Assembly (NCBI GenBank): GCA_947481575.1
Contig: CANKGV010000003.1
Span: 51,934-115,933, forward strand
Length of the DNA: 64,000 bases
DNA from: Alphaproteobacteria bacterium
Lineage (GTDB): Bacteria; Pseudomonadota; Alphaproteobacteria; UBA2966; CAIVPW01
Direction: 5' to 3'
Below are positions 1 through 39,274 of this stretch, in pieces. The notes under the pieces are model-generated. The model was not told the origin of the DNA. It was given only the letters and a program-made list of their open reading frames with translations, and made no database searches. Numbering within the stretch: the first letter of the stretch is position 1; each line of letters opens with the position of its first letter. The translations under genes and the position numbers were made by a program.

Positions 1-128
1 GGGACGGGGGAGACGCCGGGAACGAACTGCGGCGGTGCGAACGCGGCCGCGTGGTACTCGCCGACCAACTCAAGGATGCGGCCGCGGAGCGCGGCGCTGC
101 GATCGGCATTCGTCGTGGACTCAGTCAA
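1..128 (-). CDS. ddhC: CDP-4-keto-6-deoxy-D-glucose-3-dehydrase (DegT/DnrJ/EryC1 aminotransferase-like), N-terminal fragment only; putative TTG start at 128
   Basis: Minus-strand translation of 1-128 reads (M)TESTTNADRSAALRGRILELVGEYHAAAFAPPQFVPGVSPVP, the typical RfbH/DdhC N-terminus; GAAGG SD 8 nt upstream of the TTG; runs off the window edge. Confidence 0.45.
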   Translation of the reverse strand, partial: MTESTTNADRSAALRGRILELVGEYHAAAFAPPQFVPGVSPV

Positions 129-171
129 TTCTAGCTACCTTCTGCGAATCTCAACCACCGCGGCAATCGCA

Positions 172-1245
172 TCATACCGGGCTGGTATGAGCCAAGGCCT
201 CGTAGTCGGCAATTTGTGCGTGAGTGACCGCCAATGCGTCGACCCCATGGGCGACCGAACGATACCAATCGGTGGTCATCTTGATCGAATCATCGAACGA
301 GAGCCGGGACTGCCAATCGAGACGTTCTGCTGCGCGGGCGGGGTTGAGCGTCAAGATCGCCGTCTCGGCGGGGTGGATTCCGGTGTCGTTGACCCATGGC
401 ACCGCGCCGCGGCCCCAGTGCCGGACGACCGCATCCGCGACATCGGCGACACTGCGCAACTCGTCGCTGCGCGGGCCAAAATTCCAGGCAACGGCATAGC
501 TGCGATCCCGCGCCAACAGGCGTTCCGCGAGCCGGAGATAACCGGCGAGGGGTTCCAGAACGTGCTGCCAGGGGCGGATCGCGTGTGGTGCCCGAATCCG
601 TGCCGGTACGCCGCTCAGGATGGCGCGCACCAAGTCAGGAACGAGGCGATCCTCGGCCCAGTCGCCGCCACCGATGACGTTGCCCGCGCGCGCAGTGGCG
701 ATCAGCGGATCGTCGGCTCGGTCGAAGAACGACGCGCGATACGAACTGGACACCAGTTCCGCGCACGCCTTGCTGGCGCTGTACGGGTCGTGCCCGCCTA
801 GCGGGTCGTCCTCGGCGTTGCCGGCTGCGCTGGCACCGGCACGATAGACCTTGTCCGTCGTGATGATCACCGACGCTCTCACGCTGGGGCAGGTCCGGAC
901 CGCCTCTAGGACGTGTACGGTTCCCATCACGTTGGTCGTGAACGTTGCGACCGGATCGGCGTAGGACGCCCGGACCAGCGGCTGGGCGGCCATGTGAAAG
1001 ACGACATCCGGCTCCGCCCGTTCCATCGCGCCGCGAACGAGCGCGCGGTCGCGAATGTCGCCGAGAGTCTCGGAAAATCGCCCCGGCAGTCCGGCGGCAC
1101 GATGGAGGGAGTCCGGATCGGCCGGCAACGCGAAGCCGACGACGCGCGCGCCCAAGCGTTCCAGCCACAGGGCCATCCAACTGCCCTTGAACCCAGTGTG
1201 TCCGGTCAGGAATACGCGCTTACCCGCCCAAGCGGTTGCGGGCAT
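172..1245 (-). CDS. rfbG: CDP-glucose 4,6-dehydratase
   Basis: KRVFLTGHTGFKGSWMALWL Rossmann N-terminus, YSASK active-site motif; ATG at 1245 chosen (MPATAWAGKRVFLTG) rather than upstream track start. Confidence 0.85.
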   Translation of the reverse strand: MPATAWAGKRVFLTGHTGFKGSWMALWLERLGARVVGFALPADPDSLHRAAGLPGRFSETLGDIRDRALVRGAMERAEPDVVFHMAAQPLVRASYADPVATFTTNVMGTVHVLEAVRTCPSVRASVIITTDKVYRAGASAAGNAEDDPLGGHDPYSASKACAELVSSSYRASFFDRADDPLIATARAGNVIGGGDWAEDRLVPDLVRAILSGVPARIRAPHAIRPWQHVLEPLAGYLRLAERLLARDRSYAVAWNFGPRSDELRSVADVADAVVRHWGRGAVPWVNDTGIHPAETAILTLNPARAAERLDWQSRLSFDDSIKMTTDWYRSVAHGVDALAVTHAQIADYEALAHTSPV

Positions 1246-1255
1246 GGTCAGGTCA

Positions 1256-2026
1256 CTATTCCCATTTGCGCCACGGGGGGCGGGGGGTGGCCCACAGCGT
1301 CTCAAGTTCCTTCTTGTCGCGCAGCGTGTCCATGCAGTGCCAGAAGCCAGTGTGGTGATGTACCGATATCTGACGTGCTTGCGTCAGGCGCGCCATCGGT
1401 TCCTGTTCCCACACCGTGTCGTCACCGCGAATGTAGTCGAGGACCGTAGGCGACAGAACGAAGAAGCCGCCGTTGATCCACTGGCCGTCGCCGGCCGGCT
1501 TCTCGTCAAATCCAGTCACCGTGTGGCCGTCGAACCGGATTGCGCCGAAGCGCCCCAGGGGCCGCACCGCCGTTACGGCGGCTAGGGTGCCGGCCCTGCG
1601 CCGCAGTTCAACCACGCTGTTGATGTCGAGGTCCGTCACCGCGTCGCCGTAGGTCATGCAGAACGGCTCGTCGTCCAAGTAGCGCGCAATGCGTTTCAGC
1701 CGGCCGCCGGTCTGCGTGCCGACACCCGTATCAACCAGGGTGACGCGCCAATCCTCGGCAGGCCCGGAATGGGGCGACACCGTGTTGGTCGCGAGGTCGA
1801 CGGTCAGATCCGACGCGCGCTCGTGATAGTCGAGGAAGTAGCGCTTGATCATGTCGCCCTTGTACCCAAGGCACAGGACGAAATCCTTGAAGCCGTGCGC
1901 GGCGTAGATCTTCATGATGTGCCAAAGCATCGGCTGCTCGCCGATTTCCACCAGGGGCTTCGGCTTCAGGGAAGTCTCTTCGGACAGGCGGCTGCCAAGC
2001 CCGCCGGCAAGAATTACAACCTTCAT
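1256..2026 (-). CDS. rfbF: glucose-1-phosphate cytidylyltransferase
   Basis: MKVVILAGGLGSRLSEETSLKPKPLVEIG nucleotidyltransferase signature; GGGGAG SD 7 nt upstream of ATG 2026 (track start is GTG 2032). Confidence 0.85.
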   Translation of the reverse strand: MKVVILAGGLGSRLSEETSLKPKPLVEIGEQPMLWHIMKIYAAHGFKDFVLCLGYKGDMIKRYFLDYHERASDLTVDLATNTVSPHSGPAEDWRVTLVDTGVGTQTGGRLKRIARYLDDEPFCMTYGDAVTDLDINSVVELRRRAGTLAAVTAVRPLGRFGAIRFDGHTVTGFDEKPAGDGQWINGGFFVLSPTVLDYIRGDDTVWEQEPMARLTQARQISVHHHTGFWHCMDTLRDKKELETLWATPRPPWRKWE

Positions 2027-2047
2027 CGCCACGCTCCCCCGAAGACG

Positions 2048-2629
2048 TCAGCCACCGCACGCGGCGGGCTGATCCGCTTGGAACAGAATATCGCCAGCTG
2101 GCTCAAGCGTCGCACCCGTTACCCGTCCGCGGAAGTAGAACCCATCCACTACTTCGTACATGACTTCCTCGACCACGAAATCCGCGCGCACGTCTCCGGC
2201 TAGGCCGTCCGGAACGACGATCTGCGCCCGTCCCGAACTGCGATCGAAGGCGGTTACCCTCGGCCCATGAATTCCCCAGATCACGTTGAGTCCGTTGCGC
2301 GCGGCAAGCGCACAACCAAAGCGCTGCGCCGCGAGGGTGCCGTAGTCTTCGTTAAAGGCGCCCTCGCTGGGAAACACCCAGACTACGCTTGGTGGCTTCC
2401 CGTCGCGAACCCCGGTCCAAATCCGCTCGGCGAACGGCATGAGATACTGGTCGGTCGTGGCGAAAATCAACTCTCCCGGGCGCGCTCGGTTGACGACCTG
2501 CTCGACTACGGCCTGCTGGCTGAAGCGCGGGGTCGCCTGGGGCAGCCGCTTAAGCGTGTGCGACGCTGGTACATACCCTGCGGTGAGGATACCCAGCGCG
2601 ATCGGTACCAGCCGCAGCTTGGCATTCAT
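2048..2629 (-). CDS. hypothetical exported protein (N-terminal signal/anchor MNAKLRLVPIALGILTAGYVPA); no recognisable catalytic motif
   Basis: 193-aa ORF with coding-like composition, packed between cysNC and ddhA on the same strand. Confidence 0.4.
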   Translation of the reverse strand: MNAKLRLVPIALGILTAGYVPASHTLKRLPQATPRFSQQAVVEQVVNRARPGELIFATTDQYLMPFAERIWTGVRDGKPPSVVWVFPSEGAFNEDYGTLAAQRFGCALAARNGLNVIWGIHGPRVTAFDRSSGRAQIVVPDGLAGDVRADFVVEEVMYEVVDGFYFRGRVTGATLEPAGDILFQADQPAACGG

Positions 2630-2717
2630 GGTGGGCCGTGCTCCAAGAGGCTGGGCGGATTTGGGTCGTGCGGCATGATCGGAAGCAGTCCACTGACCGC
2701 CGCGGGCCGCGGCAGGA

Positions 2718-4610
2718 TCACCGTTTTCCGCCGGCCGCCTGCGCCGCGCGATCCGCGAACTGCTCGCGGACGTAGCTGACGATCGCGTCTACGGACTGCT
2801 CCACGTCCATCGCAGCGGTGTCGACAACCAGTTCTGCGGTCTCGGGCGGCTCGTAGGGCGCCGAGATGCCGGTGAACTCTTGGATCTCGCCGGCACGCGC
2901 CTTGCGGTACAGCCCCTTGGGGTCGCGCCGCTCGCAGGTGGCGAGGTCGGCCTTCACGTACACTTCGTGGAACGAGTCGCCGACCGCCTTGCGGGCGCGG
3001 GCGCGGTCGGACCGGTACGGCGAGATGAATGCCGTCAGCACGACCATGCCGGCCCGGCTCATCAGGGCAGCCACTTCGCCGACGCGGCGGATGTTTTCCG
3101 CGCGCTCGTCGGGCGAGAAGCCCAGGTCCGAGTTGAGGCCGTGGCGCATGTTGTCGCCGTCCAGGACGAACACTTGATAGCCGAGGCTGAACAGACGGCG
3201 CTCGACAGCGCTGGATAACGTCGATTTCCCCGAGCCGGACAAGCCAGTGAACCAGATGACCCCGCCGCGGTGGCCGTTGCGGCGCGCGCGCGCCTCGACC
3301 GAGACAGCCTGTTCGGTCCAGGTGATGTTGCGCGACTTGACGGTGAGCGCCTGGCGCTGATCGGCGTACCCGGCCATCGAGATGATGCCGCCGCCGGCGA
3401 TGTCGTAGCCGTCGACGAGCACGAAGCGGCCGGACAGGGGCGCGCTGGTGAATTCATCCAGCGCCAGCACGCGATCCGCCTGCAGGATGACTTCCGCGAC
3501 CGCATTGCGCTCGACCTTGTCGGAGGCGGCGGTGGACAGATCGCCGGTGTCGACTACGTGTTCGATCGCCTGGACGCGCACTTGTGCCTCGGCGGTAGCG
3601 AGCTTCAAGCGGTAGCGCGAGCCGACGGTGAGCGAGGTCTTGCCGAGCCAGAACAGGCGGGCGCGGAACACGTCGCTTTCGATCGGCGGCTGCGCCTCGT
3701 GGCTAACGATCTCGCCGCGCTCGACGAAGATTTGTTCGTCGAGGGTGAATCCGGTGGAGATGCCCGCGCGCACTTCCGTGGGCGTGCCGGGTACCAACCA
3801 TGCTTCGATGGAGGCCACGCGCGCCGACTTATTGCTCGGCGAGAACAACACGCGGTCGCCGACCTTGAGCACGCCGGAATCGATGCGGCCGGCGATGATG
3901 CGGCGGTGGTCGAACTTGTAGACGTCTTGCACCGGCATGCGCAGCGGCAGGCCTTCGGGCTGGGTCACCACCTTGAAGCGCTCGAGGGCGCCCATGACGG
4001 TCGGGCCCTTGTACCAGGGCATGTTGACCGACTGGGTCACCACGTTGTCGCCGCCACGGCCAGAGATCGGCACGATGTGGGTGGGGGTGACGCCGACGCC
4101 GATCAGATAGGCGCGGTATTCCTTTTCGATTTCCTCGAAGCGCGCCTGGCTGAAGCCGACCAGGTCCATCTTGTTCACGGCGACGGCGATCTGGCGCACG
4201 CCGAGCAGATGCAGCAAGTAGCCGTGGCGGCGGGACTGTTCCTTCACGCCCTCGGCGCCGTCGATCACCAGCAAGGCGGCATCCGACGCCGCGGCGCCGG
4301 TGATCATGTTCTTCAGGAACTCTTTGTGGCCTGGCGCGTCGATGATGACGTAGTCGCGCGACTGGCTCTTGATCCAGATTTGCGACGTGTCGATGGTGAT
4401 GCCCTGGTCGCGCTCGGCCTGCAGCGCGTCCATCAAGAACGCCCACTCGAACTCGACGCCGCGGCGGCGGCACACTTCGCGGATCGCTTCGACCTTGCCT
4501 TCCGGCAGGCTGCCGGTGTCGTGCAGCAAGCGGCCGACCAGCGTGGACTTGCCGTGGTCGACGTGGCCGACGATCGCGACCTTCAGGCCTTCGCGCGAGG
4601 TTCCCGGCAT
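2718..4610 (-). CDS. cysNC: bifunctional sulfate adenylyltransferase subunit 1 / adenylyl-sulfate kinase (CysN-CysC fusion, NodQ-like)
   Basis: GTPase P-loop [11 protein letters not shown] at N-terminus; C-terminal APS kinase P-loop [10 protein letters not shown]. Confidence 0.9.
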
Positions 4611-4614
4611 GGGC

Positions 4615-5415
4615 TTACATGTACCCGTCGGCGCGCAGGCGCTCGAACGCGTCTTCGGCCTCGTGATCCATGGCGCGGCCGGAGCGTTCGGCGACCTTGG
4701 TGGTCTCGAGTTCGGCGATCACTTCCGCAACAGTGGATGCGTTGGAGCTCACCGGCGAGGTGATGTCCTGGTCGCCGAGCGAACGGTAGCGCTTGCCGTT
4801 GCGGGCGAAGTACAGCGGGACCATCGGAATCTTCTCGCGGTCCGAATACTTCCAGATGTCGAGCTCGGTCCAATGCAGGAGCGGGTGAATGCGCAGATGG
4901 GTGCCGGGCGGGAAGTCGGTGTTGAACTGGCCCCAGAACTCGGGCGGCTGATCCCGCACGTCCCACTTGCCGGCGCCGGCGCCGCTGCGCGGAGAGAAGT
5001 AGCGTTCCTTGGCGCGGGTGCCTTCTTCGTCGCGGCGGATGCCGGCGAACACGCCTTCAAATCCGTGCGCTTTCAACACGCGCTTCAGGCCGGCGGTCTT
5101 GCGCGCGGCCGAACGGGCGGCGGGGGGCAGGGACGGGTCCATTTCTTCGACCGGCGGGCAGTCGCCGAGGATGAGGTCCAAGCCCCACTCCTTCGCGTAC
5201 TGGTCGCGGAAGTCGTACATTTCCTTGAATTTCTTGCCGGTATCGATGTGCAGTACCGGGAACGGCAGGCGGCCAAAGAACGCCTTGCGCGCCAGCCACA
5301 CCATGACGTTCGAGTCTTTGCCGAGCGACCACAGCATCGCAAGTTTGCCGATGCGGTTGAACGCCTCACGAAAGATGTAAATGCTCTGGCTTTCCAGAGC
5401 GTCTAGCGGGGTCAT
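4615..5415 (-). CDS. cysD: sulfate adenylyltransferase subunit 2
   Basis: PAPS-reductase-like [17 protein letters not shown] and [16 protein letters not shown] motifs; 4-nt gap to cysNC start. Confidence 0.9.
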
Positions 5416-5554
5416 GCTGCGGCGCTGGTGTTACGGCGGAGGATCCGACCGGTGGCCGGAAAAGAGCCGGTTTCGCCTTGGATTGTCAAGTTTCCGCGCG
5501 GGTTTGGGGCGATCCTATCTAGGCGTCTTGTTGGGCCGCTCAAAACGGTCGATG

Positions 5555-8488
5555 TCATCGGAACAATTGCGGCCAGTCACGCGTTACCGCGTCGAGGTTC
5601 CCTGCGCTGGTAACGTCATACAGGCGGGTAGTCATGATCAGGCGTTGACCGCCGTCCCGGGAAAGAGGGCGGAACGCGAAGACGCTAGCGCTCGGGGTCG
5701 AATGAGTGAGTAGTAGGTCGAATGGCACAACAATGAAGAACCCTTTGTCGAACGAGCCTTCGCCGAACCGTTGCGCCGAGACATTTGTAAACGTTGTCCA
5801 CAGGCCTACACGGACACCGCTATCAAAACGTCGAGACAACTCGTACGTCGCGCCAACATCGCCTGCGAGGTAACGCCCCACGTGGGCCATGAGCAGAAGG
5901 TTCTTGTAGGGAAGTTCGTAGTACAGGCTGAAATGGCCGGTGGTTACCGCGTACTCGCGGAACGCAAAGAGCTGCTGGTAGTCACGTTGCCGGACCCGGT
6001 CCAGTTCCAGGCCGAGCGACAGCCGCGAATTGAACGGCCGGAACAGAGTCTCGGCGCTAACGCCTCCGAACATTTCTTCAAACAGACCTAGTGACATCCG
6101 GGTGTAGAGCTCTGGGCCCGCCTTGAAGAAGAAGTCGGTTTGTAGTCGGGTAATGTTATTGGCACCCTCCTGCAAGTAGTTGCGAATATCACTGCGAACG
6201 TGTGGCAGGACGCTGTCTGACACTAACGTTATCTTCTTGAAGTTGTTGTAGAGATCTAGCCCGAAACTTGTCTCTGCTGACCAACCGCGTCTGATCTCGA
6301 CACCGGCGTTGAATGCTAGCCAGAACTGATACAGGAGGAACTGGTTGGGCCCGCCAATGTGCTGGCGAGTCTGTGGCGCAGCGCTCCAAGTAAAACGAGG
6401 ATAGCGGCCGGTGTTGGAGTCGGCAGCAAGCCCCGGCATGCCGGGTTGTCCAGGTTCCCAAACTGCATGCGCCATAACTTCTTCTGGCGTTCCCTCGCCC
6501 GCGGCCTGACGCTCAAGGTCGGTGCGGCGAAAAGTGACGCGCGCGAGTTGCATTCCACCGCTGAGCGACGCGACCGTTATCTCTTCGATGGGCGCAGGAA
6601 TGTAGCTGGCGATGACTCGGGCGGCCGTGCCGAAGTTTCTCGCCTCCTGCGGAAACTGATTCATCGTTACTTCGGCTACTACAGAGCGCGAGCCCAAACG
6701 TAGAGAGTCCAATGAGAAACCGTACTTAGAGAGTTCTTGCCCCACGCGACTGCGGACTGCGGCGATTTGTTCGCGTGTATACGCCGGATCGGCAGGAACT
6801 GTGTCGTGGTCGATTCCGGCGGCGGCAGCAAGCTGCGCGAAGTCAAGACGATCCAATGTCAGCGGGTAGATCTGGAGCGGTGGGGTTGCCGCTAGCGGTC
6901 CAAGTGGCGTGATGGCGGGCGCAGTTAAGGGTGCGAGCAACGTCACCGAGTTCAGCGGAGGCGCGGCCGCAATCGTCTTAGCTGGTCTTGCTGCCCGAAC
7001 GATGGCGACTGAGACCTCCAGACTAGCGGCGGCAACGCGTGCGGCAGCAGCCAAGTCAAACCGGGCGCCTGCTAGAATGGGAGTGACAGAAACTGTGGCG
7101 GCCGCGCCTATGATACGGACGTCACTGATATCCAGGCCGAGGGCAGCGAGGCTGTCGAAGAGGTCAGGCATTGGAGGCATCGACCTGATGCCTGGGAATC
7201 GCTGAACGCGAGTCGCAATGACCCCAGGATCGACAACGATGACCGAATCAACGTCCTCTGGCACGCCCCCGAACGCGGCGCGGGCGGCACTCTCGTAGTC
7301 GGTATCGCTAGTGCCATCCACCGTCACGACGTATTCATCGCCAACGACAGCAACGTCCAGGACAGAAAGGCCAAAGCTGCCGAAGATGCCGTACAGTTCC
7401 ACGCCCAAGTCGGGAGAAGGTGGCCTTCGGCCCGCCAAATTCGCTACGGATGGCGTTGGGGTTGGGCGGGTTTCAGAGAATGGCGCGGCGGCGACCTTCG
7501 ACGCGGAAGGGGGTGGTGACGGCCGCAATGGGGTTGTCGGCACCGCATCGGCGTTTGGCCCGGCGAGCATTGCGATGGTCTGGCGGGGCTCGATTGAAGG
7601 GGGCGGCGGGTCAAATTTCGGCAGACTGGCTTGGTCCTGCAGATTTGCGCGCAAGGTGACGCGCGTCGAGAGAGTGTCACCCCGTTCCCGCCCCACTGAG
7701 ATGTCGATCCAGGACCACGGCCGGAAATTGAAGCCGTAGTTGATCGGAGATTTGTAGGGGAGGGCATTGTCCAAGGCCTCTTTTGCGGGGTCGTGCCCGT
7801 CGTATTCGATCTTTAGGCTGAGGCCTTCGATTGGCGTGTGGTACTCGATTCCGCCAAACGGCCCGATCGTGTCGCCAGAGAACAGTCGAGACAGGTTCAC
7901 TTGACCCCCCTGGCCCTGTTCTGGCTTGAAGGTCCTGCTGAAATTGCGGAGTGGGTTTGGCAGATTGCCCCGTGACCCGAGGTAGTCCCAGCCCAGGCCC
8001 AAACTAAAATCTAGGTCACGGTAGCGCTTGCTTGCGACAACGTATTCACCCTCAAACACGCCGGTGCCAAGCAGATCCTGAAACCCAATCGCTACCTCTG
8101 GGAGGTAATCGCTTTCTGACCACAGGTGAAATTTAAGATCGGCGCTGCGGTCCTTGTAGGTCTGCGTGCCGCTGAAACGAGGGTCGCTCGAGTAAAGGCG
8201 ATTTTGCACCTCAGTGTAGCGGAACGTGGCTTCGAGCCACGGCATCACGTGAAGCGTCAGCAGAGTGCGCTTGTATGGGAACGCCTGCGAGAGGCCGATC
8301 GTCGCGAGGCCGTCTGGTCCCATTCGCGCACTGCGAGTTTCGATCAATCCGACGCCGCCGAAATTGCCGGGAGACACCAAGTTGGCGACTGCTGGCGCGA
8401 TTTCTGCTGAACTGGCGGGCAATGGCGCAACCAACGCTAAAGCAACGAAACCTGCCACCACCCTGGCAGTGACCACGGAGTCTTTCAC
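5555..8488 (-). CDS. yjbH: YjbH/GfcD-family outer-membrane exopolysaccharide protein (977 aa, GTG start, signal peptide, Pro/Ala-rich central insert)
   Basis: Signal peptide VVAGFVALALVAPLPASSAEI; YjbH-like N- and C-terminal beta-rich regions (FDKGFFIVVPFDLL near C-terminus); residues ~290-560 low complexity (PPPPSIEP, PTPTPS, AAPPLNSV). Confidence 0.55.
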   Translation of the reverse strand: MKDSVVTARVVAGFVALALVAPLPASSAEIAPAVANLVSPGNFGGVGLIETRSARMGPDGLATIGLSQAFPYKRTLLTLHVMPWLEATFRYTEVQNRLYSSDPRFSGTQTYKDRSADLKFHLWSESDYLPEVAIGFQDLLGTGVFEGEYVVASKRYRDLDFSLGLGWDYLGSRGNLPNPLRNFSRTFKPEQGQGGQVNLSRLFSGDTIGPFGGIEYHTPIEGLSLKIEYDGHDPAKEALDNALPYKSPINYGFNFRPWSWIDISVGRERGDTLSTRVTLRANLQDQASLPKFDPPPPSIEPRQTIAMLAGPNADAVPTTPLRPSPPPSASKVAAAPFSETRPTPTPSVANLAGRRPPSPDLGVELYGIFGSFGLSVLDVAVVGDEYVVTVDGTSDTDYESAARAAFGGVPEDVDSVIVVDPGVIATRVQRFPGIRSMPPMPDLFDSLAALGLDISDVRIIGAAATVSVTPILAGARFDLAAAARVAAASLEVSVAIVRAARPAKTIAAAPPLNSVTLLAPLTAPAITPLGPLAATPPLQIYPLTLDRLDFAQLAAAAGIDHDTVPADPAYTREQIAAVRSRVGQELSKYGFSLDSLRLGSRSVVAEVTMNQFPQEARNFGTAARVIASYIPAPIEEITVASLSGGMQLARVTFRRTDLERQAAGEGTPEEVMAHAVWEPGQPGMPGLAADSNTGRYPRFTWSAAPQTRQHIGGPNQFLLYQFWLAFNAGVEIRRGWSAETSFGLDLYNNFKKITLVSDSVLPHVRSDIRNYLQEGANNITRLQTDFFFKAGPELYTRMSLGLFEEMFGGVSAETLFRPFNSRLSLGLELDRVRQRDYQQLFAFREYAVTTGHFSLYYELPYKNLLLMAHVGRYLAGDVGATYELSRRFDSGVRVGLWTTFTNVSAQRFGEGSFDKGFFIVVPFDLLLTHSTPSASVFAFRPLSRDGGQRLIMTTRLYDVTSAGNLDAVTRDWPQLFR

Positions 8489-8543
8489 TATCTATGTTCC
8501 GGTGGAGTGGATGTAGGAGTCGGTCGACCCAGGGGCAAGCCGA

Positions 8544-11417
8544 CTACCGACTGATCACAGCCAGAGACGCCATTGTGATCGCGATCTGGCTCACTAGTTG
8601 GGCGATGCTTCCGGTAACTGCGAGAAGATTCAGTGGTGCAGCGTTCTTCGGGGCGACGATCGCGCTGCCCGGCGGGATTTGGACAGGGTTATAGTTCCAA
8701 ATGCTGGTCGATATGGGCTGCGCCGAACCGTTCGGGAAGATAAGGAACAGTCGGCTCTGATCGGCCGAGCGCTCGAACCCACCTGCCCGTTTGATGTACT
8801 CGTCAGCGGTAGAGCCCGACCGGAATTGTAGAGCACCGGGGTTGAGGACATCGCCAAGCACGAGTACGGAGTTTGGGCGCTTCGGCATGAATACTGTGTC
8901 ACCCGGTTCCAAGGCGGTGTCGAACTCGGGTCGAACCTGCAACACGGTCGGATCGGCCTCGATCACGACCCGACCCACCGCCGGGGTCTGTGCAATCTGA
9001 TCAGTCAAGGCTTGGAGCGCGCCGACGGCTCCGGCGCTAATTTCGCCCTTGGTGGTCGCGAATACCGCCGCTGCCGACAATTCCCGAGCGGCTTTGGCGA
9101 AGCCCTCTTGTTGCGCACGCTTAACACTTTCACGCGTGAATACAGCGCCGTAGGGATACGCCTGTGCAGTTAGCCCGCCCGCGCGGATCATTAGCTGCGA
9201 CAGCGTCTCCCCCCGACGAATCTCATAGTAGCCGGGGTGAACAAAGTCTCCGGCTAGCAGCACCGGGCCGCTTTCGCGGTCGGCAAACACTGGGTTGAAG
9301 CGCACGATATCGCCGGGATTTACCACGGCGGTCGCGGCCTGTGCGCCGCTCAAATCAAGGTTGGCCCGCGTCGCCTGGCCGGCCGTGACGGTGCTGCGTG
9401 TTATTTCTACCCGCTTGAGGTCGGCGGTCCGGGTGACCCCGCCCGCAGCGGCGACCACGCTTGTGATGGGAGCGCCATCTACGACCGGGTAGGCTCCTGG
9501 GGTTCGGACTTCGCCGCTGAGCGCGACAACGTATTCCAATGCAAAAGGCAGCAGGGCGGCATTCTGCTGGAAGAGTCGGGGACACACCTGCGCCGCCGTG
9601 GCTCGCTCTTGCGGCTGAACTAGCGCAGCCGTCTGCGCATTCTGCCGGGCTGCAGCGCCCGCCGCCTGGATTGCGTTGTCAAATCGCCCAGAGCGCGTGG
9701 TGCTCACGACACGAGCGAGAGCATCCAGCCCGCTGCAGGAAGGTTGCTGCTGGGAGGGCCCAATTGCCTTCTTGTCCTCGCCCGCAGCAAGCAACTCGAT
9801 CTTGCGATTTGCTACGTTCAGTTGCTCGGTGAGGTCCCTCAGTTGGCCTGCTATGGGCACTCCCTCCGGTGCCATCCCGGCCGCGTCCGGCTGGACAGCG
9901 ATCACCTTTTGGACGTACGGGGAAGACAGGAACTGGATGTCGCTGACCGTGAAGACGTATAAACGGTCCGCGTCGCTCAGTAGGTAGTCCAACTGGCCCG
10001 ACATGATTCGCTGCAGGTCGACTGGGAACAGCCGGCGACTAAGTGCGCCGGGATCGGTCGTCTCCAAGACGGCGAACGGCGTATACGCGTCAGGCTGCAA
10101 GTTGTCCGAGGCGCCGATCAATGCGCGCACGCTGGGGGCCGCGCCAAGTGTTCTGATCCCCGGCGCGCGCACTGCTCCAACGAGTTCTACAACTCCAACA
10201 TTGATCTCTCCGCCGAAGTCGACGCGCACAAGCGTTCCACTCAGGATCGGCGCTGTCAGGGAACTATTCTCGCTCACCTGCGAGCGCCCCGCGGCGTCGA
10301 ACGAGTACGTTGAAATGCGCGAGCCCTGGGGACGAAGGGTGTTGCCAGCCATGGCCAACGCCTCGCCTACGGTGAGGGAATTGCGGTCGGACGCAAGTTC
10401 ATAGATCCCGGGGCGCTTGACCTTGCCGGCGACGGCTACGGTTGCGCCAATTGTGGGCACAATGATTCGATCTCCTTCGTACAGCGCCAGATTGCGAGTC
10501 AAAGTTCCGTAGAAGATGAGGTCATAGAGATCAATCGTAAACGAGGCGCCCCCACGCTGGACGATCACGTGGCGGAGACTGCCTGTCTTCTTGATTCCCC
10601 CCGCCTGAGCTAACGCATCGAGGATCGTCGAAAGGCCGGTCAGTTGGTGGACGCCGGGCTGGGAGACTTCCCCCAGAACCGAGACTGCCACTAGACGCAC
10701 CGAACCAAGTGACACAAATACTTCGGTGCCGACATACGCCGATCGAACCCGGGCCTGCAGTTCATTTCGCAGTTCACCGAACGTCCTACCCGCCGCCAAG
10801 ATCGGCGGGAGGTTCTGGACGGTAATGTGGCCCTCGCGGTCGACCACCAAACGGTTTGCCCCATTGGCTTGACCGCGCAATGTGACCACTAGTTCATCGC
10901 CGATGCCGAGAAGGTAATCGGCGGGAATAGTCCCGTTCACCAGGACACTTGGGGTGCGCGCGCCGTCAAACGTTTCATACCCGAATTGAAGCAGTGCTTC
11001 GCGCGCCCGTTGGCAATAGTCCTGCTCCAGCGCGCCGAAATTGCCGATCGCCTCAAGCGCGTCGCGTTCGGCGTCTTTCAGGCGCCCCTCACAAAACCGC
11101 CGCACCACCAGCATTTCCGTCTCGGAAAGCTTCATCGTGCTCCGACCTTGCGTGGTCGGTTGCGCACGGGATGACAGCGGCGAAGCCGTCGCCTGTCCTT
11201 GGGCCGCAGGGGCCCGCGCGGCATCAATGGGCGTGGTCGTGCCACCTCCGGCCGCCGTAGCAGCACCGATGGCCGGAGTCTGAAGGAGTTGCTGCAGCAA
11301 GGTGGGAAAATCTTGCGCCGCGCCGGGAAGTGCAATGATCGAGTTCAGCAACGTCAACGCGACGGCGAATGCAACGACCGGTGAACTGCGGTTGAGCATC
11401 GAGTACAGTGTCTCCAT
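8544..11417 (-). CDS. Wza-like outer-membrane polysaccharide export protein with ~6-7 tandem SLBB (beta-grasp) repeats and C-terminal hydrophobic helix
   Basis: Start reassigned to ATG 11417 (METLYSMLNRSSPVVAFAVALTLLNSIIALPGAAQ signal peptide); Poly_export-like GDELVVTLRG...VQNLPPILAAGRTFGEL then repeated G-V-x-x-PG-x-Y...AGG modules; C-terminal LNLLAVTGSIAQLVSQIAITMASLAVI. Confidence 0.7.
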   Translation of the reverse strand: METLYSMLNRSSPVVAFAVALTLLNSIIALPGAAQDFPTLLQQLLQTPAIGAATAAGGGTTTPIDAARAPAAQGQATASPLSSRAQPTTQGRSTMKLSETEMLVVRRFCEGRLKDAERDALEAIGNFGALEQDYCQRAREALLQFGYETFDGARTPSVLVNGTIPADYLLGIGDELVVTLRGQANGANRLVVDREGHITVQNLPPILAAGRTFGELRNELQARVRSAYVGTEVFVSLGSVRLVAVSVLGEVSQPGVHQLTGLSTILDALAQAGGIKKTGSLRHVIVQRGGASFTIDLYDLIFYGTLTRNLALYEGDRIIVPTIGATVAVAGKVKRPGIYELASDRNSLTVGEALAMAGNTLRPQGSRISTYSFDAAGRSQVSENSSLTAPILSGTLVRVDFGGEINVGVVELVGAVRAPGIRTLGAAPSVRALIGASDNLQPDAYTPFAVLETTDPGALSRRLFPVDLQRIMSGQLDYLLSDADRLYVFTVSDIQFLSSPYVQKVIAVQPDAAGMAPEGVPIAGQLRDLTEQLNVANRKIELLAAGEDKKAIGPSQQQPSCSGLDALARVVSTTRSGRFDNAIQAAGAAARQNAQTAALVQPQERATAAQVCPRLFQQNAALLPFALEYVVALSGEVRTPGAYPVVDGAPITSVVAAAGGVTRTADLKRVEITRSTVTAGQATRANLDLSGAQAATAVVNPGDIVRFNPVFADRESGPVLLAGDFVHPGYYEIRRGETLSQLMIRAGGLTAQAYPYGAVFTRESVKRAQQEGFAKAARELSAAAVFATTKGEISAGAVGALQALTDQIAQTPAVGRVVIEADPTVLQVRPEFDTALEPGDTVFMPKRPNSVLVLGDVLNPGALQFRSGSTADEYIKRAGGFERSADQSRLFLIFPNGSAQPISTSIWNYNPVQIPPGSAIVAPKNAAPLNLLAVTGSIAQLVSQIAITMASLAVISR

Positions 11418-11463
11418 GAACGATTTCCCCGACCGCAACAGACCAAAGCAAACACGCGCATAC

Positions 11464-12114
11464 ATGCGGCGAGAGGTGCTCACCGCATCTACCGCATTCG
11501 TCTTGTCCGGCTGCACGGTACCAGCAGTGTTCGCGAACATTGGGACGGTCACCCGTACCAGCATCCTGGGCTTGCCGGATGCCCCGGTAGCCACTGCATA
11601 TATTCAAAGTTTACCATACGCGACCATCAGCGCAAAGATCGGCAAGGGGCAACGGTCGGTCCTGGTGCTGGCGCGATTTGACGGTCCGGACCTGCACTGG
11701 GTTTCGGCGGACCATGCTGTGTTTGTGACTCGCAATGGTCGGCTGATCCGCGTGTTTGGAGTTGGCGCGAGTCTAACTGACACGCTTCAACTGGATCGCG
11801 ATCCGATATGCAGCGGCAGCTACGACTTTGATCGCGAGTCGGTTCGTGCTGTCGATCTTGCGGCTGACCAGCGCTACGGAGTTCCCATCAAGTCAACGTA
11901 CCGAGTGTTGGGACGGGAGACGATCGCGATCATGGACCATCAAATCGACGTACTCCGAGTGCGCGAGTTCAGCTCAGCGGTATCCTTTCGTTGGACGTTC
12001 GAGAATGATTTCTGGTTTGATTTTTCGGACGGGTTTCTGTGGAAGAGCGTCCAGAACTTCAACCCCGAAATGGCGCCCGCGGAAATCACGGTGTTGAAGC
12101 CGGCGCGCGTCTAG
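11464..12114 (+). CDS. yjbF: YjbF/GfcB-like lipoprotein
   Basis: ATG 11464 gives MRREVLTASTAFVLSGC lipobox (LSGC); ~216 aa; divergent from the Wza-like gene. Confidence 0.45.
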   Translation: MRREVLTASTAFVLSGCTVPAVFANIGTVTRTSILGLPDAPVATAYIQSLPYATISAKIGKGQRSVLVLARFDGPDLHWVSADHAVFVTRNGRLIRVFGVGASLTDTLQLDRDPICSGSYDFDRESVRAVDLAADQRYGVPIKSTYRVLGRETIAIMDHQIDVLRVREFSSAVSFRWTFENDFWFDFSDGFLWKSVQNFNPEMAPAEITVLKPARV

Positions 12115-12179
12115 AGGCATTGTCCGGCGCAATACCACCGGACAATCAATCGATGCCGACCCCCGCTCCGCTCGGTGCC

Positions 12180-12215
12180 AAAAAAAACTGGGCGACCCGC
12201 AACTGAGTCGCCCAG
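12180..12215. terminator. bidirectional hairpin terminator (A8 - CTGGGCGAC - 10-nt loop - GTCGCCCAG)
   Basis: Perfect 9-bp inverted repeat 12188-12215 preceded by an A-run on plus (U-run on the minus transcript of the yjbE-like gene). Confidence 0.55.
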
Positions 12216-12273
12216 TCCCTCAGAAGATGTTTTGCCCACCGCGCCGAGTAGGGCGGGCAGCTGCCGTGCAGCG

Positions 12274-12690
12274 CTAGCGGTCGAGGTAAACGTCGTAACG
12301 GTACGTCGTTTGTGATGCCGATACAGTCGCTGTCGAGGTCGACGTAGACGTGCTGATAACCGAGCGCGCGCCGCCAGCGCCAGCAACGGCGGCGATTGCA
12401 ACCGCAACAGCAGCCGCAACGGCAATGGCTCCCCCGACGCCTAACCCCACCGCACCGATTCCCAGTCCGGCCGCCGCACCGCCGGCCGCGCCGCCGCCCG
12501 CACCAGCAGCAGCAGCAGCAGCATCCTGGCCGGCTACCGCGGTCGGAACCGACTTCTGCGAAAGCATGTTCTGTTGGAACTGCAGCGAGACTGCGGCCGC
12601 CGCGGCATCAGCGGCCAACGCCAAAGTCGGCGCAACGACCAGCGCAACTGCTACCCCAAACGCCATCGCCTTCATACGGAACTGGTTCAT
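12274..12690 (-). CDS. yjbE: YjbE-like small secreted Ala/Gly/Ser/Thr-rich protein
   Basis: GGAGG SD 4 nt upstream of ATG 12690; signal peptide MKAMAFGVAVALVVAPTLALA; then poly-Ala/Gly and STSTSTSTAT low complexity, resembling E. coli YjbE composition. Confidence 0.45.
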   Translation of the reverse strand: MNQFRMKAMAFGVAVALVVAPTLALAADAAAAAVSLQFQQNMLSQKSVPTAVAGQDAAAAAAGAGGGAAGGAAAGLGIGAVGLGVGGAIAVAAAVAVAIAAVAGAGGARSVISTSTSTSTATVSASQTTYRYDVYLDR

Positions 12691-12907
12691 TAGGCCTCCA
12701 AACGCTACAGAAATCCAAATCTTACGACCGCCGCCATGAGCACCGACGCAACTCCGAACCTACAGAAAGAATTATGCGTGCTCAAGGAGTGTTTTTTCCA
12801 ATGCAGATACTTCGTCACGCTTAGTAAGCGTAACCCTCGGGAAACCATGATTGGCTGGGAAATCGCGGCTACTTTAGCATCCCTGCTGGTGACGCTAAGG
12901 ATTCCCC

Positions 12908-14653
12908 ATGGTTGAGCCTCCCTGGCTGGCCGGCTATCCGCCCGCCATCGACTGGCATGCAGCGATCCCGGTGCAGCCCTTGCCGGCCCTGTTTGCCCAG
13001 TCAGCGCGCCGGTTTGGGCCGCGGCCGTGCCTTGATTTTCTCGGCCGCCGCTACAGCTATGCGGACGTCGAGCGTCTGATCGAGCGGGCGGCGCGCGGTT
13101 TTCAGAACCTTGGGGTAACCAAAGGTGCGCGGGTAGGCCTGTTCCTACCCAACTGCCCGCAATTCGTGGTCGCGTACTTTGCGATCCTGCGCGCCGGCGG
13201 GACCGTGGTGACCTTTAGTCCGCTCTACGCTGAGGCGGAACTGCGCCACCAAGTGCTGGATTCCGGTACGGAATTCATGGTGACGCTGAATCTGACGGCG
13301 CTGTACCCGCGGGCGCAGGCGCTGATCGGCGGGACCCAACTGCGCCGCCTGGTCGTGGGCACGTTGAGCGAAGTCCTGCCGTTCCCGAAGAATTTCCTGC
13401 ACCCGATTTTCCATCGCCGCGAGATTGCCGAAATCGACGGCGACGCGGTGCGTTTTTCGGACTTGATTGCCGACGCAACGCCACCGGCGCCGGTGGCGAT
13501 CAACCCCGACACCGATATCGCGCTGCTGCAGTACACCGGCGGCACCACCGGCACCCCGAAAGGCGCGATGCTGACCCACGCGAATCTCTCGGCGAACGCA
13601 CACCAAGCCCTGCTGTGGCTGGACGGCGTCCGCTGGGGCGAAGAGAAGATGTTGGCGGTGTTGCCGTTCTTCCACGTCTTTGCGATGACGGTCGCAATGA
13701 ACCTCGCCCTATACGTGGGCGCGGAGATCATCATCCATCCGCGGTTCAGGCTCGAAGACGTGCTGCGCGACATTCACCGCAAGCGGCCGACGCTGCTGCC
13801 GGGCGTGCCGACGATGTATGCGGCGATCAATTCCGCGGACCTGCGAAAGTTCGATCTCACGTCGATCCGGTTCTGCATATCGGGCGGCGCACCGCTGCCG
13901 GTCGAGGTGAAGCAACGCTTTGAGACGCTCACCGGGTGCAAATTGGTCGAAGGCTACGGCCTAACCGAGACGGCGCCGGTGGCGACCTGCAACCCGTTGT
14001 ACGGGGTCAATAAGGCTGGCTCGATCGGGCTGCCGCTGCCCGGGACGACGGTCACGATCACCGACCGGAATGACCCGTCACGGGTTCTGGGCGCGGGCGA
14101 GAGGGGGGAGATCTGCATCTCCGGCCCACAGGTCATGCGCGGGTACTGGAATCGTGCCGACGAAACCGGCGCCGCGATCGTGGACGGACGGCTCCGCACC
14201 GGGGATATCGGATACCTCGATGCCCAGGGATACGTGTTCTTGGTCGATCGTATCAAAGACTTGATCCTGGTCGGCGGATTCAACGTGTATCCGCGTGTGG
14301 TCGAGGAGGCGATTTACCAGCACGACGCCGTGGTCGAGACGATCGTGATCGGCATTCCAGACGACTACCGCGGCCAGGCCGTGAAGGCGTTCGTTCGCGT
14401 CCGCGACGGTGCGCGGCTCACGCAGGCCGAGTTGCTGGCGTTCCTTGAGTCACGGGTCGGCCGCCACGAGATGCCTCACGAAGTCGAATTCCGCGCCGCC
14501 CTGCCGCGGACCTTGGTGGGGAAGTTGTCCAAGAAGGAATTGGTTGAGGAGGAACTGGCGAAGGCGCGCGTCAAGTCCGGCGCCAACGTCCCGGCTACGG
14601 ACGCAGGCGCCGACCTCGCGCGCGGATCGCCGGTTGCCGACCCTGCTCGTTAG
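12908..14653 (+). CDS. fadD: long-chain-fatty-acid--CoA ligase (AMP-binding)
   Basis: LQYTGGTTGTPKGAMLTHANL AMP-binding motif, GYGLTE, C-terminal K of PEVEF..LPRTLVGKLSKKEL. Confidence 0.8.
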   Translation: MVEPPWLAGYPPAIDWHAAIPVQPLPALFAQSARRFGPRPCLDFLGRRYSYADVERLIERAARGFQNLGVTKGARVGLFLPNCPQFVVAYFAILRAGGTVVTFSPLYAEAELRHQVLDSGTEFMVTLNLTALYPRAQALIGGTQLRRLVVGTLSEVLPFPKNFLHPIFHRREIAEIDGDAVRFSDLIADATPPAPVAINPDTDIALLQYTGGTTGTPKGAMLTHANLSANAHQALLWLDGVRWGEEKMLAVLPFFHVFAMTVAMNLALYVGAEIIIHPRFRLEDVLRDIHRKRPTLLPGVPTMYAAINSADLRKFDLTSIRFCISGGAPLPVEVKQRFETLTGCKLVEGYGLTETAPVATCNPLYGVNKAGSIGLPLPGTTVTITDRNDPSRVLGAGERGEICISGPQVMRGYWNRADETGAAIVDGRLRTGDIGYLDAQGYVFLVDRIKDLILVGGFNVYPRVVEEAIYQHDAVVETIVIGIPDDYRGQAVKAFVRVRDGARLTQAELLAFLESRVGRHEMPHEVEFRAALPRTLVGKLSKKELVEEELAKARVKSGANVPATDAGADLARGSPVADPAR

Positions 14654-15569
14654 CCACCCGGCGTGCCTGGAACACGCGGTGCCCGGTCACCCGGAAAGCC
14701 CCGCGCGGCTGGAATCGGTGCTGGCGGCGCTGGCGGCGCCCGCGTTTGCCGGCCTGGTGCGGCGCGAGGCGCCGGAGGCCACGCGCGAGGAACTCGGGCG
14801 GGTTCACGAACTTGGCTACATCGACGCTGTACTCGCCGCCGTTCCGCCCCGCGGCATCGTCGAACTCGATCCGGACACCGCCCTTACCCCGGGGTCGGGG
14901 CGCGCGGCGCTGCGCGCGGCGGGCGCGGTCGTGATGGCGGTCGATGCGGTGGTCGGAGGCTCCGTCACGAATGCCTTTTGCGCCGTGCGGCCACCCGGGC
15001 ACCACGCCGAACGCGGCCGGCCGATGGGGTTCTGCATCTTCAACAACGTGGCGGTGGGGGCCTTGCACGGGCGCGCGGCCCACGGGCTGGAGCGGGTCGC
15101 GATCCTGGATTTTGATGTCCATCACGGCAACGGCTCGCAAAATGTGTGCGCGCCGGATTCCGCGTTGTTTTACGGCAGTACCCATCAGAGTCCGGCGTAT
15201 CCAGGGACCGGGCGCGCCCACGAGACGGGGGTAGCCGGCAACGTCGTCAACGTGCCCTTGCCGCCCGGCACCGGCGGGGCCAAGTTCCGCAACGCCTGGG
15301 CCGAACAGATTCTCCCGGCGCTCGACGCGTTCGCCCCGGATCTGGTGATGGTTTCCGCCGGATTCGATGGGCACCGCGACGATCCGCTTGCGTCCCTGCT
15401 GCTGGAGGAGGCGGACTTCGCCTGGGTGACCAAGGCGATCGGGGCGGTGGCGGCGCGCCATGCGCGCGGCCGCCTTATTTCGGTGCTGGAGGGCGGCTAT
15501 GACGAGGACGCCCTGGCGTCGAGCGTGCAAGCGCACGTAGCGGAATTGATGCTCCTGCGGCAGGCATAG
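14634..15569 (+). CDS. histone-deacetylase-family protein (AcuC/acetylpolyamine amidohydrolase-like); start uncertain (TTG 14634 or CTG 14643; track ORF opens at 14409 inside fadD)
   Basis: LLVSHPACLEH...PPGHHAE...DFDVHHGNG...GGYD catalytic motifs of Zn-dependent deacetylases. Confidence 0.65.
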   Translation: MPTLLVSHPACLEHAVPGHPESPARLESVLAALAAPAFAGLVRREAPEATREELGRVHELGYIDAVLAAVPPRGIVELDPDTALTPGSGRAALRAAGAVVMAVDAVVGGSVTNAFCAVRPPGHHAERGRPMGFCIFNNVAVGALHGRAAHGLERVAILDFDVHHGNGSQNVCAPDSALFYGSTHQSPAYPGTGRAHETGVAGNVVNVPLPPGTGGAKFRNAWAEQILPALDAFAPDLVMVSAGFDGHRDDPLASLLLEEADFAWVTKAIGAVAARHARGRLISVLEGGYDEDALASSVQAHVAELMLLRQA

Positions 15570-15630
15570 GATACCTTGTTCCCCTCGCAGCAGCGAGCAG
15601 TACACTTCATCCTTGTGCGGAGGGATGTGA

Positions 15631-15894
15631 ATGGCCCCCGACGAACTCTCCGAACCTGTGCCCGCCGACATCCGCAAGCTTTCCTTCGAGAAGGCGCTGC
15701 AGGAGTTGGAGGATATTGTGCGCCGGCTCGAAAGCGGCGAGGTCAGCCTGGAAGAATCCATTGCCACGTACAGCCGCGGTATTCAGTTGAAGCGCCACTG
15801 CGAGGCGAAGCTGGAATCAGCCCGCCAGCAGGTCGAGCGCATCGAACTGAAGCCGGGCGGCGCACCCGCGTCCGAGCCGGCTGCCTTTGAATAG
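15631..15894 (+). CDS. xseB: exodeoxyribonuclease VII small subunit
   Basis: SFEKALQELEDIVRRLESGEVSLEESI signature, 87 aa. Confidence 0.85.
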   Translation: MAPDELSEPVPADIRKLSFEKALQELEDIVRRLESGEVSLEESIATYSRGIQLKRHCEAKLESARQQVERIELKPGGAPASEPAAFE

Positions 15895-15904
15895 CGCCGC
15901 ACCC

Positions 15905-16810: not shown

Positions 16811-16817
16811 GACACCG

Positions 16818-26669: not shown

Positions 26670-26674
26670 CCAAC

Positions 26675-33816: not shown

Positions 33817-33825
33817 AGAGCAGCC

Positions 33826-35100: not shown

Positions 35101-35119
35101 AGGCCCTAGTCGCATTTCG

Positions 35120-39196: not shown

Positions 39197-39274
39197 GCGC
39201 GTGGCAAAGCCTTGAGTCGACAGGGGTTCCGTGGCATTGCCTTCGGGCAGGGCGGATGGAGCCGTGCGACAAGT

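Follow-up and report, generated by a model that had tools for sequence, protein, structure and literature searches.

A candidate surface-glycan locus combining a YjbH-type export set, sulfate-activation genes and CDP-dideoxyhexose genes in an uncultured alphaproteobacterium

Gene content of the locus and its export module

The first 12,690 nucleotides of a 64-kb stretch of alphaproteobacterial DNA (the whole stretch, 64,000 nt, is called the window below) carry a glycan-related locus. It contains genes for a YjbH-type outer-membrane export set, for the synthesis of 3'-phosphoadenosine 5'-phosphosulfate (PAPS) and for a cytidine diphosphate (CDP)-linked 3,6-dideoxyhexose. On the minus strand, seven complete genes and the start of rfbH lie head-to-tail; by falling coordinate they are the exporter gene, yjbH, cysD, cysNC, a gene for a 193-aa protein, ddhA, ddhB and the start of rfbH (ddhC), which begins with a TTG codon at 128. 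From the rfbH-ddhB junction to the yjbH-exporter junction, in rising coordinates, the gaps measure 43, 10, 21, 88, 4, 139 and 55 nt. The gene coordinates thus bear out the original prediction, made from the sequence alone, of seven head-to-tail genes followed by a ddhC that starts at 128, with gaps now placed at 4-139 nt. Profile searches likewise support, above their cut-offs, the family calls then made for YjbH, YjbF, CysD, CysNC, DdhA, DdhB and DdhC. A matching contig was found in public assemblies (L001, L002), and L002 extends to the left past the window edge; the region read was ~74 kb, comprising the window and 10 kb to its left, of a metagenome-assembled contig of 184-304 kb. Each enzyme or family identity is established by homology or fold, as are the split glycosyltransferase and the conserved linkage described below. 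The features are as follows.

1..128, minus strand: 5' end of rfbH/ddhC, CDP-6-deoxy-D-xylo-4-hexulose-3-dehydrase (E1); the full gene (457 aa) continues left of the window
172..1245, minus strand: ddhB, CDP-glucose 4,6-dehydratase, 357 aa (TIGR02622, 445 bits against a cut-off of 278)
1256..2026, minus strand: ddhA, glucose-1-phosphate cytidylyltransferase, 256 aa (TIGR02623, 390 bits against a cut-off of 300; the exact protein is on record)
2048..2629, minus strand: C-terminal half of a split GT-C-fold glycosyltransferase, predicted to be membrane-anchored, 193 aa (family profile and P0127 match)
2718..4610, minus strand: cysNC, sulfate adenylyltransferase large subunit fused to adenosine 5'-phosphosulfate (APS) kinase, 630 aa (TIGR02034, TIGR00455, PF01583)
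4615..5415, minus strand: cysD, sulfate adenylyltransferase small subunit, compact 266-aa form (NF003587, 343 bits against a cut-off of 195)
5416..5554, minus strand: yjbH-cysD intergenic region, with a TTGACA hexamer (5489-5484) and the left recombination breakpoint (~5511-5554)
5555..8488, minus strand: yjbH/gfcD-type double-barrel outer-membrane protein, 977 aa (PF06082, 678 bits)
8544..11417, minus strand: class-2 (KpsD-like) outer-membrane polysaccharide export protein, 957 aa (Poly_export, five SLBB stretches, fused GfcC/YjbG module)
11464..12114, plus strand: yjbF/gfcB-type lipoprotein, divergent from the exporter gene (PF11102, 120 bits; lipobox LSGC)
12274..12690, minus strand: yjbE/gfcA-like small secreted protein, 138 aa (position and design conserved in L087, L089 and L170)
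5511..12521, no strand: exchangeable export cassette comprising yjbH, the exporter gene, yjbF and the mature part of yjbE (drop in DNA identity relative to L087)

The YjbH protein scores 678 bits against the Pfam family PF06082 (cut-off 24), and correction of its start gives a 977-aa form with a signal peptide. By BLASTP it aligns with E. coli K-12 YjbH in two blocks of 42% and 35% identity, in which residues 39-296 and 622-961 correspond to E. coli residues 30-294 and 348-691. The intervening region is ~270 aa longer than in E. coli YjbH; this middle part (residues ~297-621) is periplasmic and Pro/Ala-rich, with several short beta-rich segments, and BLASTP detected no internal repeats in the insert. 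YjbH homologues of 900-1060 aa are common among metagenome-assembled genomes (MAGs) of Alphaproteobacteria, and the best GTDB relatives are only 34-45% identical to the protein of the window.

The exporter had been predicted to be Wza-like. We found that it is indeed a polysaccharide exporter, with Poly_export (PF02563), PF10531 in five SLBB stretches and PF22461, and that it ends in GfcC_C (PF06251; 31 bits against a cut-off of 20). Its last ~120 residues match E. coli K-12 YjbG (27.5% identity, E=1e-10, BLASTP). Poly_export followed by SLBB repeats and a GfcC domain is the definition of a class-2, KpsD-like outer-membrane polysaccharide export (OPX) protein (Saidi et al. 2022, PMC9603273), and from this domain order we classify the protein as a class-2 exporter with a fused YjbG/GfcC module. 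The most likely start is at 11417 (METLYS...), which provides a signal peptide without a lipobox; at the C-terminal end, where an outer-membrane-spanning Wza_C helix bears on the choice between subclasses 2A and 2B, a hydrophobic helix is present and Pfam Wza_C was not detected. No free YjbG/GfcC gene was found, and the module occurs only as the exporter C-terminus; YjbG is therefore not missing, since it is fused to the exporter.

The divergent lipoprotein gene encodes a YjbF (PF11102, 120 bits against a cut-off of 25.9; 26% identity to E. coli K-12 YjbF, E=5e-18, BLASTP), and its most likely start, at 11464, yields the lipobox LSGC. The YjbE-like open reading frame is low in complexity and found no profile match in Pfam and no BLAST match. 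The frame is nevertheless a candidate yjbE: the design of the product (signal peptide, Gly/Ala-rich stretch, hydrophobic stretch and (Ser-Thr)n tail) is like that of E. coli YjbE, and a gene of matching design is kept at the equivalent position in three other lineages (L087, L089, L170). A promoter-like site lies upstream of it at 12800-12771. We found no GfcE class-1 Wza paralogue, Etk kinase or Etp phosphatase among the Pfam-annotated genes of the window and the 10 kb to its left. The export set is closer to yjbEFGH and to the wbf genes of Vibrio than to a complete group 4 capsule operon. In L089, an IS110-family transposase gene (6035-7060) lies between yjbF and the exporter gene, which is called as two pieces, suggesting that the export set of that genome is disrupted.

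Comparison with a related locus, L087, revealed that the export genes have a separate history. DNA identity is 94% over 1-5510 and 12522-17170 and 65-70% inside 5511-12521, where protein identity is 55-57%. This ~7-kb block of low identity coincides with yjbH, the exporter gene and yjbF, together with the portion of yjbE that encodes the mature protein. Its borders fall immediately after the yjbH stop codon and, within yjbE, after ~56 codons. GC content at third codon positions (GC3) is 0.65-0.70 in the cassette of the window versus 0.82-0.89 in its flanks, and the L087 allele of the cassette, at 0.74-0.84, is near-native. Because identity drops at sharp borders and GC3 is foreign, we conclude that the export module was replaced as a cassette, probably from a donor of lower GC content. 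The PAPS and sugar genes stayed fixed while the export module was exchanged, which is the reverse of what is usually described for capsule loci. This finding suggests diversifying pressure on the export proteins themselves, phages being one possible source.

The sugar module and a split GT-C glycosyltransferase

The sugar genes continue beyond the left edge of the window. The full RfbH protein (457 aa) scores 711 bits against NF011936 (cut-off 423) and aligns end-to-end with the structure of the Yersinia E1 dehydrase (PDB 3BCX, E=9e-169); in this alignment SFYPAHHITMGEGG and the C...CxC...C [2Fe-2S] motif are kept, and so is the active-site histidine. To the left lie genes for a family 2 glycosyltransferase (GT2), an FkbM methyltransferase, a short-chain dehydrogenase/reductase (SDR), a split transketolase and the membrane half of a GT-C glycosyltransferase. 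No terminal abequose, paratose or tyvelose synthase equivalog was recognisable. The split transketolase (L002, 16438-18170) also accompanies CDP-glucose dehydratase genes in L007 (980-2778), L170 (17323-18653) and the P0128 contig, which suggests that the product carries a two-carbon branch and is not a plain 3,6-dideoxyhexose. Together with the FkbM methyltransferase, it suggests a branched or methylated product.

Among solved structures, the GT2 is most closely related to GtrB (5EKP, E=6e-50), ArnC (E=2e-30) and dolichol-phosphate mannose synthase. The protein has two C-terminal membrane helices, with membrane segments at 224-297, and from these similarities we assign it as a putative polyprenyl-phosphate glycosyltransferase of the GtrB/ArnC type.

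The 193-aa protein encoded at 2048-2629 had been considered a possible sulfotransferase. It falls into only 2 clusters among 5.8 billion proteins (word-based search) and has no Pfam, NCBIfam or PDB sequence match. The ratio of nonsynonymous to synonymous substitution rates (dN/dS) of its gene relative to L087 is 0.195, indicating purifying selection. With 2 input sequences AlphaFold gave a poor model (predicted local distance difference test, pLDDT, 49.5), for which Foldseek returned nothing meaningful (E>0.05, TM<=0.27). Its identity emerged instead from a 374-aa polytopic membrane protein, unannotated, that is encoded ~9 kb left of the window (L002, 18202-19326). An exhaustive HMMER search found 61 relatives of the 374-aa protein, many of them 540-600 aa long, and an AlphaFold model based on 48 relatives reached a pLDDT of 93.7. 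The top 29 PDB matches of this model are all GT-C enzymes (STT3, EmbA/B/C, ArnT, Pmt4, AftA/B, PglB), with a probability of 1.0 for the fold and TM-scores of up to 0.63. Positions 7-371 of a profile built from this family match the 374-aa protein and positions 381-542 match the 193-aa protein (E=2.3e-23), and the 193-aa protein is 42% identical to residues 398-567 of P0127, an unsplit relative of 581 aa (E=8e-42). Because both the family profile and the P0127 alignment continue past the 374-aa half, we assign the 193-aa protein as the C-terminal half, detached and predicted to be membrane-anchored, of a split GT-C enzyme and reject the sulfotransferase assignment. The family is absent from Pfam; here its halves lie in different operons, and the relatives of 540-600 aa hold both in one chain.

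In L172, the unsplit P0127 gene is accompanied by cytidylyltransferase, 4,6-dehydratase, GT2 and C-methyltransferase genes, and neither yjbH nor cysDN lies in its surroundings. This gene set defines an autonomous module, in which a CDP-6-deoxyhexose derivative would be made, moved to polyprenyl phosphate and then transferred in the periplasm by the GT-C enzyme, a scheme also followed by the Gtr and Arn systems. Because a GtrB/ArnC-type GT2 is paired with a GT-C enzyme, the dideoxy sugar more probably serves to decorate a glycan in the periplasm than to build its backbone; by analogy with such pairs, the sugar genes look more like a lipid-carrier system for periplasmic decoration than like a pathway for a polymer backbone.

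We asked whether the acceptor of this sugar could be the YjbE-like protein. In this reading, the GT2 and the split GT-C enzyme would attach O-glycans to this Ser/Thr-tailed protein in the periplasm, and the product, possibly sulfated as well, would be a mucin-like cargo or a primer. YjbF, the exporter and YjbH would then see to its export or anchoring, and the whole export set, with mature YjbE, would be exchanged between strains as an antigenic cassette. PgfS, which is part of a protein O-glycosylation system, is the best NCBIfam match of the GT2, and the structural matches of the GT-C half include the protein O- and N-glycosyltransferases Pmt4, PglB and STT3. Moreover, the cassette breakpoint inside yjbE means that mature YjbE co-varies with the export proteins, and (Ser/Thr)n tails recur in the YjbE-like proteins of other loci. 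However, the PgfS match, at 183 bits, lies far below the cut-off of 500, and Emb and ArnT, which act on glycan or lipid acceptors, match the GT-C half at least as well. L172, in turn, has the sugar module with no YjbE-like gene seen. We consider both the glycosylation of YjbE and its export as an antigenic glycoprotein improbable. If YjbE were the substrate, this would provide a function for GfcA/YjbE and for the GfcABCD/YjbEFGH family, which are still functionally undefined in published E. coli work.

Sulfate activation and the linkage of the three modules

Between the export and sugar genes lie cysD and cysNC. The CysN portion scores 356.5 bits against TIGR02034 (cut-off 336) and the CysC portion 254 bits against TIGR00455 (cut-off 139); PF01583 covers positions 2-152 of 152, so that the fused APS kinase domain is full-length, and its P-loop, GLSGSGKST, is intact. 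We found no convincing terminator or promoter between yjbH and cysD (fold z-score 0.77), and no further cys genes within the region read. The compact 266-aa CysD was considered as the mark of a glycan-specific clade and rejected, as this form is widespread: its genomes range from 31-72% GC, and it appears in sugar contexts as well as in assimilatory ones.

To ask whether the three sets of genes belong together, we compared neighbourhoods across related genomes, and found that the linkage of yjbH, cysD-cysNC and sugar genes recurs. L087/L088 have the same gene order, in flanks with 94% DNA identity to the window, and L090 has yjbH-cysD-cysNC in the orientation of the window. In L089, cysD-cysNC (79% and 73% identical to those of the window) is convergent with yjbH and adjoins genes for membrane GT-C-like proteins, an epimerase and a GtrB-like GT2. 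The pair is also convergent with yjbH in L170/L092, which carry ddhA/B-like genes, the split transketolase, a GT2 and a sugar C-methyltransferase gene as well. The P0128 contig reads yjbH-cysD-cysNC...ddhA-ddhB-transketolase-GT-C, with a 43%-identical GT-C protein. L007 has yjbH and the exporter gene with ddhB, the split transketolase and a GT2, but lacks cysDN. A second cysD-cysNC clade, only 38% identical to that of the window, was present in 5 of the 80 GTDB yjbH loci (in Rhizomicrobium-like MAGs), where it adjoins yjbH-yjbF, at a distance of ~9 kb in one case.

These data demonstrate a conserved association of the modules across several lineages and arrangements. The linkage is unlikely to be accidental because it survives rearrangement and arose in two separate cysDNC clades, and functional coupling is plausible because yjbH, cysD-cysNC and the CDP-sugar, transketolase and GT-C genes recur together. 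Directly upstream of cysD, in the same orientation, L170 (15617-16663) and L089 (16546-17514) carry a gene for a polytopic membrane protein that is 78% identical between the two loci and has a weak DUF2142 match. In those relatives, this protein ties cysDNC to membrane glycosylation genes.

We propose, with about an even chance of being correct, that the locus is a functionally coupled, three-module surface-glycan locus, probably with sulfation. In the first module, the secreted Ser/Thr-tailed protein, YjbF, the KpsD-like exporter with its YjbG/GfcC module and the long YjbH barrel would serve outer-membrane export and anchoring. By analogy with E. coli GfcB-GfcC-GfcD, for which the biochemistry of the complex (PMC8592465) and a lateral-gate model of GfcD (PMC11494523) have been published, these proteins may form an outer-membrane assembly that hands a glycan, which could be lipid-anchored, over to the cell surface. 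In the second module, CysD and CysN-CysC would make PAPS in the cytoplasm. In the third, DdhA, DdhB and RfbH, with the SDR, the split transketolase and the FkbM methyltransferase, would produce a CDP-3,6-dideoxy hexose, possibly branched and methylated; the GtrB/ArnC-like GT2 would load it onto undecaprenyl phosphate; and the two halves of the split GT-C enzyme (193 and 374 aa) would transfer it to a periplasmic acceptor. The special sugar most likely decorates a glycan that draws its backbone, polymerase and inner-membrane export from genes at other sites, and it is plausible that a putative sulfotransferase sulfates this glycan. We infer the order of these steps, the acceptor, the sulfation and the co-transcription of the genes.

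A number of observations weigh against this proposal, some concerning parts that it calls for and others concerning cysD-cysNC. No member of the sulfotransferase families was recognised among the Pfam- and NCBIfam-annotated genes of the window, of the 10 kb to its left, where the original prediction had also placed a possible sulfotransferase, or of the related loci scanned. An all-against-all BLASTP of the cysDNC-containing loci yielded no shared unannotated family as a candidate, and the unannotated neighbours that were tried proved to include no sulfotransferase by Pfam and NCBIfam scans and one PDB sequence search. The remaining ddh genes were likewise expected beyond the left edge; rfbH is complete there, but neither the window nor the 10 kb to its left contains E3 (DdhD), the NAD(P)H-dependent iron-sulfur flavoprotein reductase, which could be encoded elsewhere in the genome. 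We also found no flippase, polymerase, Wzx/Wzy/Wzc or ABC exporter in the ~74 kb, and no small flippase of the GtrA or ArnE/F type among the annotated L002 genes, where small unannotated open reading frames were not exhaustively examined. To our knowledge, a GtrB-type enzyme acting on a CDP-sugar has never been demonstrated. The sulfated, dideoxyhexose-containing polymer that had been predicted to leave through a YjbH apparatus is thus backed by the PAPS and DdhABC enzymes and by the conserved linkage, but not by a sulfotransferase, an E3 reductase or a polymerase; because no sulfotransferase was recognised, the prediction of a sulfated polymer has only half its expected hallmark.

The sugar module in L172, which stands without yjbH or cysDNC, also speaks against coupling. 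It fits a rather unlikely alternative in which the modules share a 'glycan island' but work independently: lipopolysaccharide (O-antigen, core or lipid A) would be decorated through the CDP-sugar, GT2 and GT-C genes, as it is by Gtr and Arn systems, and the Yjb proteins would export an unrelated exopolysaccharide. E. coli yjbEFGH has no linked sugar genes, the recombination breakpoints cleanly part the export cassette from the rest, and GtrB and ArnC, to which the GT2 is nearest among solved structures, act in the modification of O-antigen or lipid A. Independent neighbours are harder to reconcile with yjbH, cysDNC, the ddhA/B-like genes, the split transketolase and a GT-C or GT2 gene being kept together, despite rearrangements, in several lineages at 43-60% protein identity.

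The observations on cysD-cysNC bear on a further alternative, possible though doubtful, in which these genes form a general assimilatory sulfate-activation operon that lies beside glycan genes by inherited order, and the locus makes no sulfated glycan. They are the most constrained genes of the region (dN/dS relative to L087, 0.011 for cysD and 0.019 for cysNC), have native codon usage (GC3 0.85-0.89) and lie outside the exchangeable cassette, and ~95 bp of conserved DNA upstream of cysD holds the TTGACA hexamer. Among the 80 closest metagenomic relatives of CysD, those at <=76% identity are not near yjbH. The neighbours of distant CysD orthologues include many sugar epimerases, dehydratases and DegT enzymes, and some of these orthologues adjoin sulfate ABC-transporter and sulfite-reductase genes. 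The failure to recognise a sulfotransferase in the related loci scanned favours this account as well. Against it, linkage to yjbH occurs in at least three arrangements and in the two cysDNC clades that are only 38% identical, and here yjbH closely flanks cysDNC on one side and a glycosyltransferase fragment on the other, the gaps being 4-139 nt. The APS kinase is intact, and this enzyme is dispensable for assimilation in bacteria that directly reduce APS. Furthermore, the cysNDC genes beside yjbFGH in Vibrio sp. KMM 8419 are a second copy that serves a sulfated capsule (PMC11641403).

Elsewhere in the window, a second glycan- or lipid-related cluster occupies 32653-44219. Its minus strand encodes an SGNH/GDSL hydrolase, a 424-aa protein without an assigned function, an asparagine-synthase-like enzyme, a GT2 and a family 4 glycosyltransferase; divergently, its plus strand encodes three S-adenosylmethionine-dependent methyltransferases (one NodS-like), a fatty-acid desaturase and a 484-aa protein without an assigned function. 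In L174, a relative of the GT-C protein adjoins SGNH and asparagine-synthase genes; no second GT-C protein of the split family was found in the 32653-44219 cluster. At 26297-28730, a phosphoribosyltransferase gene comes after the gene for a P-loop kinase-like protein (AAA_33; its TCAD9 and zeta-toxin matches are weak).

Comparison with known systems

GfcABCD/YjbEFGH-type proteins are among the most widespread outer-membrane families, and their job is unclear. The locus ties such an export set to PAPS synthesis and to lipid-carrier glycosylation with a rare sugar, and thereby points to a specific, testable cargo: a decorated, possibly sulfated glycan. The practical value is modest, as the host is uncultured and the sulfation claim comes without a sulfotransferase.

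With E. coli yjbEFGH and gfcABCD the locus shares the YjbH/GfcD barrel, the YjbF/GfcB lipoprotein and the GfcC/YjbG module, and it has a candidate Ser/Thr-rich YjbE/GfcA-like protein of similar design. It differs in its rearranged gene order, with a divergent yjbF and a convergent yjbE, in a YjbG that forms part of a Poly_export-SLBB exporter and in ~270 additional residues in the middle of YjbH; compared with the gfc operon, GfcE, Etp and Etk are lacking and PAPS and CDP-sugar genes are attached. The class-2 OPX/GfcD pairs share with the locus a Poly_export-SLBB(n)-GfcC exporter gene that adjoins the gene for a YjbH-like barrel. Class-2 OPX proteins beside GfcD/YjbH-like barrels have already been counted, with 5 in class 2A and 19 in class 2B (Saidi et al. 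2022, PMC9603273).

The closest precedent lies in Vibrio, and the suggestion that the combination had not been described for yjbEFGH or group 4 capsule systems does not hold: PAPS genes beside yjbFGH are already known there. In Vibrio sp. KMM 8419, sulfation of the capsule has been established chemically, and the capsule locus contains yjbFGH and three sulfotransferase genes along with second copies of cysC, cysN and cysD (PMC11641403). Similarly, the K loci of V. parahaemolyticus have yjbH-yjbG-yjbF in a conserved core, and one listed insertion contains cysN, cysC and cysD (PMC7829505). These capsule loci (wbfB-C-D with a KpsD-like WbfF) share with the window yjbFGH-type genes, a class-2 exporter and extra cysN, cysD and cysC within a polysaccharide locus. 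The Vibrio loci, however, have recognisable sulfotransferases, glycosyltransferases and an ABC (Kps) or Wzx route, whereas no sulfotransferase or such route was found here; cysC is a separate gene in Vibrio and is fused to cysN here. The host here, moreover, is an uncultured alphaproteobacterium, and its sugar module combines a lipid-carrier GT-C system with a pathway to a CDP-3,6-dideoxyhexose.

The individual modules also have counterparts. CysD with a fused CysN-CysC has the NodP/NodQ architecture of NodPQ and RaxPQ, but a sulfotransferase partner of the NodH or RaxST type is absent here. DdhA, DdhB and DdhC (E1) are equivalogs shared with the Salmonella and Yersinia rfb/ddh pathway, of which DdhD (E3) was not found here. 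In common with Gtr (GtrA/B/C) and Arn (ArnC/ArnT), the locus pairs a polyprenyl-phosphate GT2 bearing C-terminal helices with a GT-C-fold membrane transferase; unlike those systems, the predicted donor derives from a CDP-sugar, not a uridine diphosphate (UDP)-sugar, and the GT-C enzyme is split between two genes 9 kb apart. What is new here, then, is an alphaproteobacterial version of the export set with a fused exporter-GfcC protein and a long YjbH, its conserved tie to a module with CDP-3,6-dideoxyhexose, split-transketolase and lipid-carrier GT-C genes, the split GT-C enzyme itself and the exchangeable export cassette.

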